A stretch of DNA of 64,000 bases from a virus. Below are positions 18,295-37,028 of the stretch, piece after piece. The position numbers were made by a program, and so were the translations under genes. The DNA lies in the IMG/VR virus record IMGVR_UViG_3300031578_000001; one strand, given 5' to 3'. The notes beneath the pieces were generated by a model. The model saw only the letters and a list, made by a program, of their open reading frames with translations. It had not been told where the DNA came from and did not search any database. The first letter of the stretch is position 1. Every line of letters starts with the position of its first letter.

Positions 18295-20658
18295 ATGACG
18301 CAGCTCAGGCTCTTTTCGTTCCACGAGCAGGACACCTCGAGGGCGCACAATCAGAGGATCGCGAGCCTTTTGGCCCCAGGCGTCTACAAGGGATACAGGA
18401 TCCGTCCGAATGCCTCCGATCCATCCAAGCTCGACGTCACCCATGGGAACGATGGGACGTCCGTTCTCGTAACCGTGGAGGGCGTGAGGATCCAGGAGAC
18501 GGCGGAGATCACGGGAACGCTCCAGGTACAGAATGCGGACCCATCGAGGCTGCGCTATGACCTGGTCGTGGCCGAGTACCAATGGTCTCCGAACAACGCC
18601 ATCCAGCAGACCTACAAGGTGATCCGTGGAGGCTACGCCAGGAGTTCTTCGGACACCCCTCCGATCCCGGTCCAGCAGAGCATCTACCAGATCCCCCTGG
18701 CCATGATCCTGGTGAGGCCCCAGGTAGCCATCGGAGGGATCTTCCGTGTCGAGATTCAGGAGACGGACGTCTACCACATCAGGAAGGCGTCCGATCCAGG
18801 ATCCGAGGACATTGGGACTCTCAAGCCAATCATCGACCCGGTGAACAATCTCAGGGTCTTCGTTTATTCCGGAGCCTTCCCGACCCTCGACGGTCTCAGT
18901 TTCATCCAGTTCGAAGGCGGGTACTCCGATGAGATTGACGATTCCCAGATGTCCGACGGGGAGACACGATACTTCCTCATCGGTGTGGGCGATGACAAGG
19001 GTGTCTCGATCGCAGGGGAGAGTTCGACTCTCGACACAGTTCCGAATCTGGACTCCGATATTCTCCCCGTGGCCGTGGCCAAGGTGACGAAACGGGGAGG
19101 CTCCTCTTATATCGAGGACCTGGTGGACATCAGGTTCCCCTTCGCACGGAAGACGGTTCCGAGAGAGGAAGAGGACTTCTACCAGGATCAGGCGAACACG
19201 AGCGTCTTCAGGTATGTTAGGATCGACTCGTTCCGCGGAGAGGGTCTCATCAATCTTGCCACACTTCTACCCGCTGATGCGAACCTCAGCGCCGTGATCG
19301 ATAGAGGAGAGACGAGTCTGAAGGTCTCATGGGACGGCTTGGGGCAGCCTACGGCTGATGTCACGATCAGCACGGAAGATCTTCTCGGAAACTCCGAGAT
19401 CGACCAGGTTCGCCATATCATGATAACGGTGGACACGGACGTGGAGAACCTCACGTTCGACTATTCCTCCGTTTCCGGGTATCACGGCTTCAGCGGACGT
19501 GATTTTGAGCCGAATAAAATCATCGGTCTCGCAGACGGCGTGTCCCAGCTCTTCATCAGGTTCAAGATTCCGGCCTCGGAATTCGACGGTGGAGGCATCA
19601 AGAGGGTCTTCAGTTTCGCCGTGTTCATGATCCTCGATTACGAGATGCTTAACGAGAAGTCGCTAAGCGGTCTTGGCCTCGAGTCGGCGGCCTACTCGAT
19701 CCCGAACCTAATCCCAAACGGTGACTTCAGGATGTGGAGCAGAGCTACGGATTCCTCGTCAGCCTATCCGGACATCAACTCGAGGGATCTCATCTCTTAC
19801 CAGATCAACAAGGATGACTTCGCGGATCGGAGGAACATTTTCGCCGGCGACGGATGGCAGTTCACTCGCCTCGAGTTCAACCCTAACGACGGCCTGATCT
19901 CGAGGATCCTCTGGAGCCGTGACGTAGTGGAGAGTCTCGACGAGAACACCATGGACACCGCGTTGAAGTGGACAGGCGAAGCGGGCACCGCGGGGCAGCA
20001 GAACTACTTGGAGTTCAGGACACTGGCACCCCAGGGATACGATGGCCAGTTCGTCACCTTCGCCTTCGACTACAAGTCCCAGCCCAGAGAGGCCGTGGGC
20101 ATCCGGCTCGTCCTGTACGAGCGCGGAAGCGACGGATCGCTGGCAGTTCACGATGCCGTGGAGTCCGGACCTCTCAGGACGGAAGGGACGCTGATCATCA
20201 GCTCGAACACGGCCCTGAACTCGAAGGTCTTCGCCATCGGATTCATCATCGTGTTCCAGCAGACCACGGGAATCTCCACGGTGTACGTGAAGAGCGCGAG
20301 AGCCGCGATCGGTCAATACTCGGTGCTTCCGTTCACGAGAAACACAGACGCGGACGACATGTGCTCCAAGTATTACGAGCGTGGACAACTCTTCGCATCA
20401 TCGTCGGCAGAGGAGGGCGAGGAGGTAGGAGGAGCCGTCCAGTTCGCAACGAGGAAGCTCGTCGGACTCTCTGAGAACAACTCGATCGCAGGAGCCCTGG
20501 CAGAGGCTCTCTCGAGCAGCAGGAACGTGAACGCTTCGGGCCTGTCCCTCACGGCGACCGAGAGAGGGATCCTGGCGAGGGCCACAGCCGCGCAGACGGG
20601 GCTCGTGGTTATCGACGTAGATTGGGAGGCCTCGGTGGTGTACTCTCCGGCCACGTAG
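18295..20658 (+). CDS. 787-aa virion structural (tail/fibre-type) protein
   Basis: NLIPNGDFRMWSR carbohydrate-binding-like module common in fibre proteins; beta-rich. Confidence 0.6.
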   Translation: MTQLRLFSFHEQDTSRAHNQRIASLLAPGVYKGYRIRPNASDPSKLDVTHGNDGTSVLVTVEGVRIQETAEITGTLQVQNADPSRLRYDLVVAEYQWSPNNAIQQTYKVIRGGYARSSSDTPPIPVQQSIYQIPLAMILVRPQVAIGGIFRVEIQETDVYHIRKASDPGSEDIGTLKPIIDPVNNLRVFVYSGAFPTLDGLSFIQFEGGYSDEIDDSQMSDGETRYFLIGVGDDKGVSIAGESSTLDTVPNLDSDILPVAVAKVTKRGGSSYIEDLVDIRFPFARKTVPREEEDFYQDQANTSVFRYVRIDSFRGEGLINLATLLPADANLSAVIDRGETSLKVSWDGLGQPTADVTISTEDLLGNSEIDQVRHIMITVDTDVENLTFDYSSVSGYHGFSGRDFEPNKIIGLADGVSQLFIRFKIPASEFDGGGIKRVFSFAVFMILDYEMLNEKSLSGLGLESAAYSIPNLIPNGDFRMWSRATDSSSAYPDINSRDLISYQINKDDFADRRNIFAGDGWQFTRLEFNPNDGLISRILWSRDVVESLDENTMDTALKWTGEAGTAGQQNYLEFRTLAPQGYDGQFVTFAFDYKSQPREAVGIRLVLYERGSDGSLAVHDAVESGPLRTEGTLIISSNTALNSKVFAIGFIIVFQQTTGISTVYVKSARAAIGQYSVLPFTRNTDADDMCSKYYERGQLFASSSAEEGEEVGGAVQFATRKLVGLSENNSIAGALAEALSSSRNVNASGLSLTATERGILARATAAQTGLVVIDVDWEASVVYSPAT

Positions 20659-33980: not shown

Positions 33981-34143
33981 TGCACCCCTCCTTCCTTGCA
34001 CTCGGACTCAAGTGCCTTGCACTCCATATCAAAAGCCTTGCGGCGTTGTCTTCGACGGGCCGGGGGTTGAGCCCCAGCGTCTCCCCTGCCCGTTCAGCGG
34101 GGTTTCGCCCCACCACTGCATAAGTCACCTCCCTTTCAACTGA

Positions 34144-34266
34144 TGGCGCGGGCCGGATTCGAACCGGCTTAGGCTTCCCGTAAGGAGTAGGTAAGTCGGG
34201 GTACTCCTTGCCGCGAAACCCACCACTCCCCACCTACGTGGGCACGTCCCACCGTGCCACCGCGCC
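34144..34266 (-). ncRNA. 123-nt tRNA-like RNA with canonical acceptor, D and T arms but a 73-nt middle region
   Basis: GGCGCGG/CCGCGCC+A acceptor, GCAC/GTGC D stem, GCCGG-TTCGAAT-CCGGC T arm; no canonical anticodon loop; no encoded CCA. Confidence 0.6.
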
Positions 34267-34311
34267 TTTCTTGCATTTCCAATCCCATTTTGTTAGAATC
34301 CCCTACTATCC

Positions 34312-34487
34312 TCACTCTTTCGCTTTTTTGCTGGTCAGTCCTCTGGCTTTGCCAGCTTCCTCCAGCGTCTTCCGCGCCCAGTAGTCCAGCGTGCAGATCG
34401 TATCGCCGTTCGTGATCTCGACGCCGCCGGCGATGTTGGCGAGCCGCTTTATAGAATCGACCAGCGCGTCCCGCTCATCACGGTCAT
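34312..34487 (-). pseudogene. Probably frameshifted ~58-aa gene (MT/RDERDALVDSIKRLANIAGG...)
   Basis: ATG with SD and ATGA coupling to NADAR gives only 12 codons; the coding-like frame has no start; span of 176 nt is one base short of a codon multiple. Confidence 0.45.
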
Positions 34488-34945
34488 ACGGTCCTTCCTT
34501 TCATCTCTTCCCTGATCTTCATCAGGATCTTTCCAAGCCTGTTCTGACCCTTGATCTTGGCGCACTTCTTGCACCCGCAGTCGCCCCAGTAATTGTCGTG
34601 CCAGTGGTTCCTCTCGATGAGGATGGCGTCTCCGGTGGAGAGCAGGAGCTGGGCGAGGTTTGGTTCCAGGAACTTCTCCCTGACGATGCTCTCCATGATC
34701 CGGTCCTTCACCCGGTCCCAGTCTGGCCGAAGCGTTATGTCCCGGCCTCGTATCTTGGCGTGGCCGGCGTGGCGTGCCTCGATGATCCATGTGATCTCTG
34801 GGATCTTCTTCGTCTTGCAGGCCTGGTAGGCCTGTTCGGCAGATTTCGCGATCCAATCGTAGAGATGGTAGGAGAAGCGGATCTCACAGGGGTGGAAGTT
34901 GCTGAGGAATGCGTAGTCGCCCTTGAAAGAGTTGATGGTAGTCAT
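34484..34945 (-). CDS. NADAR (YbiA/DUF1768) family protein
   Basis: FLSNFHP, SAEQAYQACK, RPDWDRVK..IM...V..KF, LLSTGDAILIE.N.W.D.YWG, GQNRLGKILMKIRE. Confidence 0.92.
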   Translation of the reverse strand: MTTINSFKGDYAFLSNFHPCEIRFSYHLYDWIAKSAEQAYQACKTKKIPEITWIIEARHAGHAKIRGRDITLRPDWDRVKDRIMESIVREKFLEPNLAQLLLSTGDAILIERNHWHDNYWGDCGCKKCAKIKGQNRLGKILMKIREEMKGRTV

Positions 34946-36072: not shown

Positions 36073-36666
36073 CTACATGACGTCGACGCCGTACGCCTTC
36101 CAGATCTCCTCGGTTCCCTTCCTGGCCCTGTCGACGAGGGCGTTGATCTGCCGCATGGTGAGGCTGGTCACGTCCCACACGAACTCGATCTGCTTCTCCA
36201 TGCGACCGTGGTTTGATCCGTAGTTCCAGTGTTTCTCGCCGTCCCTCTTGTGCTTGTCGAGGTGCTTGTCCTCGCTCATGACCTCGATCCTGGCACAGAG
36301 GTCACGGCTCGCCTTGAAGATCTTCGTCCAGGCGGGTGAGTCGTCTGAGAAGGCGACGAACTCCGTGACCAGGATCGTGATGAAGCGGCGCTCCTTGGTG
36401 ACGGCGTAGACGCGGAAGCGGGAGTTGTTGATAGACTGCTTCTCCAGCACGGACTTCACCATGAACGCATCGATCCACGGGAAGGCGTCGTCCACCTGCT
36501 TCTCGATGGCCTCGAGGACGGCCTTGTCCATCTTCGCCCTGTCCTCCTTCTTGCTGCTCGTGATGACCTTGACCGGGATACCGATCGTGTTCAGGTTCAC
36601 GGAGCCTCCCACCAGGTTCTTGTTCAGGAAAATCTCGCCCAATGAGTTGATTGTGATGCTCTTCAT
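36073..36666 (-). CDS. 197-aa hypothetical protein
   Basis: SD GGAGG; strong codon bias. Confidence 0.75.
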   Translation of the reverse strand: MKSITINSLGEIFLNKNLVGGSVNLNTIGIPVKVITSSKKEDRAKMDKAVLEAIEKQVDDAFPWIDAFMVKSVLEKQSINNSRFRVYAVTKERRFITILVTEFVAFSDDSPAWTKIFKASRDLCARIEVMSEDKHLDKHKRDGEKHWNYGSNHGRMEKQIEFVWDVTSLTMRQINALVDRARKGTEEIWKAYGVDVM

Positions 36667-37028
36667 CCGTTCCTCCTCTCGAGTGATGCTCTCTGGTTAC
36701 GACGTCCCTTCAGGTACTCGAGATCCTCAGGGTTCTTTCCATAAAGGGCCTCGAGGGTTTCCTCGATGAGATGTGGTGCGATCCTCCCATCCTTGATCAG
36801 AAGATGGACTGCCTTGGCGCAAAGACGGGCGTCGTTTGGATGACCCGTCACCCGCACCCAGCGGCTGGGCTTTATCACGCTGGCATCGGGGAGGTCGATG
36901 TTGGTGTCGGTCAGGTGCTCGAGCGTGCGGATGTTCCTCCCTTCGCGTCCAATGAGACGTCCCACCATCTCGTCGAGATTCTCGCTTTCGATACGAACGT
37001 GCACGGTCTTGTCCGCCGGCGCTTCCAT
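36663..37028 (-). CDS. Stand-alone RNase Y-like KH domain protein
   Basis: DEMVGRLIGREGRNIRTLEHLT...ARLCAKAVHLLIKDGRIAPHLIEE closely follows the RNase Y KH region; no HD domain or membrane anchor. Confidence 0.8.
   Translation of the reverse strand: MEAPADKTVHVRIESENLDEMVGRLIGREGRNIRTLEHLTDTNIDLPDASVIKPSRWVRVTGHPNDARLCAKAVHLLIKDGRIAPHLIEETLEALYGKNPEDLEYLKGRRNQRASLERRNG

Follow-up and report, generated by a model that had tools for sequence, protein, structure and literature searches.

The gene class closest to the locus described here is that of the insert-bearing phage tRNAs, exemplified by the tRNA genes of Lak megaphages with their 'enigmatic' short introns (Devoto et al. 2019, PMC6784885). 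In those genes, as in ours, the anticodon-loop region is broken by a few dozen highly conserved bases that are not a group I intron and fit no known mechanism. Excision from a Lak-type gene leaves a canonical tRNA, and the excised piece often has a tRNA shape of its own and ends in CCA, whereas the element studied here carries a plain hairpin-forming insert, would yield an aberrant spliced product and strongly favors its unspliced fold.

By analogy, the nearest counterparts are the tRNA-like units in the TMERs of gammaherpesviruses, tRNA punctuation and the engineered tRNA scaffold. Punctuation by tRNAs occurs in mitochondrial transcripts and in bacterial tRNA-mRNA co-transcripts. In murine gammaherpesvirus 68, TMERs consist of a tRNA-like unit followed by hairpins (PMC4337559); they share with the element a non-aminoacylated tRNA-like unit, then structured RNA and a T run, with ends set by tRNA processing, as those of the element would be. 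TMERs are, however, Pol III units of an animal virus with a normal-sized middle, whereas the element belongs to a prokaryotic host setting and bears its extra arm in the tRNA-like unit itself. The scaffold for recombinant RNA, an approach of Ponchon and Dardel (PMC3753655), likewise puts a foreign structured RNA in place of the anticodon arm and leaves processing and stability to the acceptor, D and T arms, but it is man-made and the element is natural. Class II tRNAs and tRNA-Sec resemble the element in having an extra arm just 5' of the T stem, set off by a 1-nt spacer, and in allowing a long D stem (5-6 bp); they differ in that the arm measures 53 nt in the element against 13-25 nt, and the element has no 7-nt anticodon loop with U33 (when unspliced), no UCA, and a 7/5 geometry.

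Anatomy and fold of the tRNA-like gene

The window analyzed here, a 64,000-nt stretch of IMG/VR record IMGVR_UViG_3300031578_000001, comes from a phage of ~182 kb that is known only from soil metagenomes. Direct reading places a 123-nt tRNA-like RNA gene on its minus strand at 34266..34144 (window 34144..34266), a placement matched by ARAGORN with introns allowed (-i) and by copies in the sequences that we label L006, L007, L016 and L017. All features below lie on the minus strand, where nucleotide n of the element is window position 34267-n. A sequence-only reading made beforehand had described canonical acceptor, D and T arms around an oversized middle, and this is what the letters show. The acceptor 5' strand GGCGCGG (nt 1-7; 34260..34266) pairs with nt 116-122 in every fold and is joined by UG to the D arm (nt 10-25; 34242..34257), which reads GCAC-GGUGGGAC-GUGC, with G14 and C21 where A14 and A21 are usual, and has a stem of 4 bp, or 5 bp if a G14-C21 pair is added. 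At the other end, the T arm GCCGG-UUCGAAU-CCGGC (nt 99-115; 34152..34168), the same as in actinobacterial tRNA-Met genes, leads into the acceptor 3' strand CCGCGCC and a discriminator A (G in L016), which together occupy 34144..34151 and are followed directly by UCAG. The absence of an encoded CCA, of a G3-U70 pair (pair 3:70 is C-G) and of a UCA triplet, all claimed at the outset, was likewise confirmed by reading. The element has a tRNA's 7-bp acceptor stem, 5-bp T stem, UUCRANN T loop and D-loop GG, and all three of its core helices (acceptor, D and T) are perfect. The core tertiary nucleotides U8-A14, A21 and R15-Y48 are violated: positions 14 and 21 are G and C, and the base preceding the T stem is A.

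The D arm is separated from the T arm by 73 nt. These begin with a G-rich segment of weak structure (nt 26-44; 34223..34241), in which CCAC has a choice of two GUGG partners and which holds the sole internal polymorphism of the element, U35/C35 (element nt 35) at 34232. The insert relative to a tRNA spans nt 31-79 (34188..34236), ~49 nt, as delimited by the ARAGORN intron call and by flanks that are colinear with tRNA-Met. It is followed by CUCCUUA (nt 80-86; 34181..34187), a putative anticodon-loop remnant in the ARAGORN model that would read CCU (compare CUCAUAA in the related tRNA-Met), then by the 3' stem strand and, beyond it, a variable region of increased length. A contiguous 5-bp anticodon stem with a 7-nt loop is absent from the element, and the best spliced model, like the ARAGORN intron model, offers only three Watson-Crick pairs. 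The earlier description of an anticodon arm that had been 'replaced' therefore needs amending: the insert is real, but a plausible loop remnant and a 3' stem strand survive on its far side. The extra nucleotides entered at 31/32 and fold together with what is left of the anticodon arm on the 3' side.

Standard searches pass over this gene. With default settings, ARAGORN reported no tRNA or tmRNA gene in the whole window, and further runs gave neither a tmRNA (-m) nor a mitochondrial-type tRNA. Rfam gave no match to the element at gathering threshold and no tRNA match even at E<=10, where the sole match was to tmRNA_permuted, at 14.7 bits (gathering score 47) and over the T arm only. Only with introns allowed did ARAGORN call the element, as a tRNA-Arg(CCU) with a 49-nt intron at 31/32, and the call was the same in all three alleles. 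Two other identities were considered and rejected: a tmRNA, on the C-G pair at 3:70, the ARAGORN result and the low, T-arm-only covariance score, and a tRNA-Sec, on the lack of UCA and the 7/5 rather than 8/5 acceptor/T geometry. The element is not a chance resemblance, given its 22-nt identity to a real tRNA-Met (see below), the intron-mode ARAGORN call and its conservation in two other contigs.

The minimum free energy (MFE) fold of the element (-62.8 kcal/mol, z = -2.5) keeps the acceptor, D and T arms and adds an 18-bp hairpin over nt 45-97 (34170..34222). In this long, irregular hairpin (8+2+8 bp with a 12-nt loop) the insert pairs with what used to be the anticodon loop, with the 3' stem strand and with the variable region; at its 3' end the hairpin stops 1 nt short of the T stem. 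Models that keep an anticodon stem and let the insert fold on itself reach -35 to -39 kcal/mol. The long-arm fold is better than these by about 20 kcal/mol. The duplex of the insert with the 3' part (-23.1 kcal/mol) was equalled by 15 of 2000 dinucleotide shuffles and beat the other 1985. Both of the alternative helices proposed earlier exist, although not on a par: AAGGAGUA/UACUCCUU lies within the MFE fold, and the pairing of GUAGGU/ACCUAC plus GGGG/CCCC is far weaker. The long arm is invariant across the three alleles, which are near-identical and hence offer no real test of covariation.

tRNA-Met ancestry and a conserved non-coding cassette

A 22-nt string covering the T arm and acceptor of the element recurs unchanged in tRNA-Met(CAU) genes that six Actinomycetota genomes (L018, L020-L023 and L025) carry in tRNA arrays, an identity that marks the element as tRNA-derived. 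The same genes are the best global match to its two 'exons'. They share with it the T arm, the 3' acceptor strand and the discriminator and have a similar 5-bp D stem, but they are canonical tRNAs of 76-77 nt with a CUCAUAA loop, whereas the element lacks CAU and is ~49 nt longer. To judge from these sequences, the element is derived from a CAU-type tRNA. An attempt to see it as a 'nested tRNA' was abandoned: a covariance model built on these actinobacterial tRNA-Met genes fits the element from nt 50 only, with an internal CGCGG as substitute 5' strand, and the 29.8 bits of this alignment come mostly from the shared T arm.

Similar sequences occur elsewhere. A lone 3' piece of the same tRNA-Met, from T loop to discriminator and without the 5' half, is present in a Nonomuraea sp. 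(L026:4241-4262) and looks like the attachment-site scar of an integrated element. Two Lachnospiraceae MAGs (L019:429-515 and L024:6324-6410) encode another tRNA-like RNA, whose acceptor stem and T arm are exactly those of the element; it has a 5-bp hairpin for a D arm, ~36 unstructured nt in the middle and then a terminator-like hairpin, and it scores 37-38 bits with the tRNA-Met covariance model while matching no Rfam family.

The element sits within a 277-nt non-coding cassette (window 34303..34027, minus strand). Identical copies of the element occur in L006 and L007, and a pattern scan of JGI metagenomes yielded two more alleles, L016 and L017, in which the cassette is ~96% identical and the genes on either side are unrelated or different. 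In all three contexts the cassette runs from just past the upstream stop codon to just before the ribosome-binding site of the next gene, and these shared bounds mark it as a discrete non-coding unit. Variation is concentrated outside the tRNA-like part: of its 123 columns only 2 vary, compared with 13 of the 152 that make up the remainder of the cassette (Fisher p = 0.014). The two changes are U35C (element nt 35), in L016 and L017, and the discriminator change A73G, in L016.

On either side of the element the cassette comprises a conserved leader of 37 nt (34267..34303), which in the alignments starts right after the upstream stop codon in all three contexts, and a conserved trailer of 117 nt (34027..34143). 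The trailer opens with UCAG and continues with a strong ribosome-binding site (GGGAGGUGA), an AUG at 34121, 22 nt past the discriminator, and a 30-codon frame that extends to 34029; its end carries two G/C hairpins and then a short one with a U run, GCC-GCAA-GGC-UUUU. All four codons of the frame that differ among the aligned alleles do so non-synonymously, and the peptide thus shows no sign of purifying selection. RNAalifold proposed an alternative helix in which the 3' acceptor strand (34151-34144) plus the trailer (34144-34027) pairs with the beginning of the 30-codon frame, so that the ribosome-binding site and AUG lie inside it. L016 has one double change in this helix, from A-U to G-C, but it is ambiguous, as its U-to-C half makes a local hairpin better, too. 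If formed, such a conformer may couple folding of the tRNA-like part to translation of the mini-ORF. Words of the cassette recurred elsewhere in the phage only as chance-level 10-13-mers.

Phage context and a second tRNA-like gene

As stated at the outset, the element lies just downstream of a NADAR gene, which we place at 34945..34484 (34484..34945, minus strand; Pfam PF08719, E 4.9e-24), 218 nt upstream on the same strand. Neither a sigma-70-like promoter nor a minus-strand terminator was found around the element, and we count this as support for co-transcription. The nearest NADAR locus, L008, has 66% identity, with synteny upstream only, and NADAR relatives have no such tRNA-like element alongside. 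Searches of GenBank phages (blastn and megablast, and tblastn with a head-region ORF) found no relatives of the phage; exact-pattern scans of IMG/VR, and scans with the NADAR and TnpB-like proteins, yielded none either. A 76-aa protein encoded beside the element has one distant homolog. No canonical tRNA gene was found in the ~88 kb of the phage examined.

Downstream of NADAR, the gap up to the cassette holds a 57-codon open frame (window 34312-34484, minus strand) without ATG, GTG or TTG; the NADAR stop overlaps an ATG (ATGA), whose frame is only 12 codons long. The 57-codon frame may be the remnant of a truncated gene or a frameshifted ORF. Its derivation from the gene that precedes the cassette in L016 was rejected, the match being limited to 7 of 12 residues around RDERDAL (E 0.049). 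The early operon that includes NADAR and the tRNA-like gene also encodes, further upstream at window 36663-37028 (minus strand), a stand-alone KH-domain protein (Pfam KH_1), a possible RNA-binding partner of the tRNA-like RNA. Codon usage in 24 long ORFs of the window is odd for a genome of 57% G+C: AGG leads among the Arg codons, AGA is used at 7.0 per 1000, and ATC, at 51.7 per 1000, dominates ATT and ATA.

Extending the phage sequence 24 kb upstream of the window revealed a paralog, hereafter B, the window element being A. B (L012:17849-17953) lies ~10.5 kb before the window start and is fMet/Met-like, with a U1.U72 mismatch. The tRNA-Met covariance model aligns it over its full length (41.8 bits, E 2e-7), with 41 nt in place of nine loop-region positions and an insert of 32-34 nt. 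A degenerate pattern built on A and B matched only canonical phage tRNA-Met genes in IMG/VR, which indicates that B, too, is a derivative of a CAU-type tRNA. B is likewise placed between ORFs, starting 8 nt past the stop codon of one and leaving a gap of 25 nt to the next, a TnpB/Cas12f-like ORF of 428 aa, and its trailer follows a pattern common to A and B (UCAG..UGAAA..GGAG..AUG). No excision was found that restores a canonical loop in B. Refolding gains B only 3 kcal/mol over a cloverleaf with an anticodon stem, and the duplex of its insert with the tail is no better than in shuffles; the shared architecture of A and B is therefore less firm than their shared layout.

The ORF next to B belongs to a phage mini type V-like locus (L012:17979-19900), in which the 428-aa protein (Pfam OrfB_IS605 and Cas12f1-like_TNB) is followed by a CRISPR array at 19289-19628 with six 29-nt repeats (GTCTAACCCACGCACACGGGGAGGACTGG) and 32-nt spacers. 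An anti-repeat near 19800-19830 pairs with the CRISPR repeat at -31.6 kcal/mol and is followed by a terminator-like hairpin, and the locus as a whole looks like a tracrRNA-dependent system. Besides this Cas12-like locus of its own, the phage encodes at L012:8143-9201 an AcrVA2-like gene (Pfam PF26125), a homolog of an anti-Cas12a protein.

Readings of the element and what they would mean

We lean, tentatively, toward the view that the element is a tRNA-derived gene for a non-decoding RNA that would be released by RNase P and RNase Z. The features of a substrate for RNase P, RNase Z and the CCA-adding enzyme are in place: the element keeps the part recognized by end-processing enzymes, namely a 7-bp acceptor stem stacked on the T arm and a D arm with GG for the elbow. 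In the predicted fold, the 49 nt inserted where the old loop begins on its 5' side draw that loop, along with the 3' stem strand and variable region, into an 18-bp arm beside the T arm. Transcribed within the early minus-strand transcript, the RNA would be cut by RNase P at G1 and, since no CCA is encoded, by RNase Z or an equivalent after the discriminator, with subsequent addition of CCA. The transcript would thereby be split, leaving a downstream RNA with a fixed 22-nt leader and a strong ribosome-binding site; the other product would be a stable RNA of 123 nt, in which the conserved long arm probably does the work by binding a protein or another RNA. In effect, it would be a natural counterpart of the laboratory 'tRNA scaffold'. 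The site between ORFs, the ribosome-binding site and AUG downstream and the layout of the paralog fit this reading best, together with the intact top half, the degenerate core and the conserved arm. The same features single out the processing or stability scaffold among the three readings offered at the outset; the decoy for anticodon nucleases is weak, as no canonical anticodon loop is displayed, and the intron lacks a mechanism. Variation of the discriminator between A and G further argues against a strict aminoacylation identity.

Several observations count against a non-decoding RNA. A punctuation role would not by itself need a conserved insert, and our analysis found no partner for the long arm. 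AGG is the top Arg codon of the phage (14.6 per 1000 codons, 165 of 501 Arg codons, in 24 long window ORFs), and the A20, C35, U36 and A/G73 of the element agree with the identity elements of ArgRS; both facts fit a decoding tRNA-Arg(CCU). Such a working tRNA, decoding AGG after novel cut-and-ligate removal of a 49-nt hairpin intron between 31 and 32, is in our estimate unlikely, although it is the main rival: intron-mode ARAGORN calls it in all three alleles, CUCCUUA is a contiguous 7-nt loop with U33, the A73G of L016 would then be tolerable and U35C (element nt 35) would fall inside the intron, and pairing between an intron and the anticodon loop, as proposed here for the insert, is seen in eukaryotic and archaeal pre-tRNAs. 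Phage tRNAs with unexplained short introns are moreover on record in Lak phages (PMC6784885). The spliced product, however, would have an anticodon stem of three Watson-Crick pairs (with C.A and A.G mismatches), or of four with a bulged A, as well as U at 37, a 7-8-nt variable loop and the non-canonical G14, C21 and A48. The known routes of intron removal also fail. A group I intron, whose catalytic core (P3-P9) takes ~200 nt or more, would not fit into 49 nt, and Rfam finds none. A single strict BHB motif (hBHBh') is present in the window allele, but as many as 45 of 1000 shuffles (4.5%) contain one, U35C destroys it in L016 and L017, and its use would yield not this tRNA but a body of 80 nt that has additional unpaired bases. 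Nor is the insert a tRNA-shaped mini-intron, as it has no T-loop-closed stem and no 3' CCA end, and the product of its excision would be aberrant. No RNA ligase or repair gene occurs among the window ORFs scanned, and paralog B cannot be spliced to a canonical loop. That the tRNA-Arg(CCU) intron is removed by an undescribed prokaryotic route, neither group I nor BHB nor tRNA-shaped, with the paralog as second substrate, we hold to be a little less likely still.

The elbow and acceptor end, both intact, could act as a decoy or sponge that titrates a host factor early, be it a defense nuclease, a tRNA-sensing regulator or a processing enzyme. The conservation of the element and its early-operon site beside NADAR would suit this role, and phage NADAR genes are found among host-manipulation and RNA-repair genes (PMC9503650); yet known anticodon nucleases read an anticodon loop and none is displayed here, no defense-related gene adjoins the element, and its conserved long arm has no link to a known target, all of which makes a decoy distinctly doubtful. 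A neutral relic, that is, a decaying tRNA pseudogene broken by a random insertion, would account for the degenerate core positions, the missing canonical anticodon arm and the rarity of a lineage of which only three alleles were found. We nevertheless think it improbable, for the element is more conserved than its cassette flanks (p = 0.014), is kept in three different gene contexts with all core helices perfect, has an insert whose complementarity is above chance, and has a second element of the same design in the same genome. The least credible proposal is a tRNA-embedded guide for the TnpB/Cas12f-like CRISPR system, in which nt 25-47 would mimic the repeat and the next 32 nt serve as spacer; we give it hardly any weight. 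B does adjoin the effector gene, the 32-nt stretch ends exactly at the loop remnant and equals the array spacers in length, and 13 of the 17 positions in nt 25-41 agree with the repeat, a figure that rises to 14 in L016 and L017. This likeness is not significant, however, with 157 of 2000 shuffles as good (p ~0.08) and 386 of 2000 for B; the repeat acts through the anti-repeat downstream of the array (-31.6 kcal/mol), and the mismatches of A fall in the middle of that repeat:anti-repeat duplex, which speaks also against A being a crRNA of the phage array. The supposed spacer is, in addition, buried in the long arm, and no protospacer was found in the window.

For annotation, the case illustrates that tRNA-derived genes with oversized middles escape default tRNA and Rfam scans. 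Should the insert be spliced after all, bacteria or phages would possess a type of tRNA intron without a known mechanism. If, as in the non-decoding reading that we prefer, tRNA-processing enzymes excise the RNA and the conserved arm is functional, then this phage would provide a natural 'tRNA scaffold', and tRNA punctuation would organize an early phage operon and, through the paralog, a CRISPR/TnpB-like transcript.
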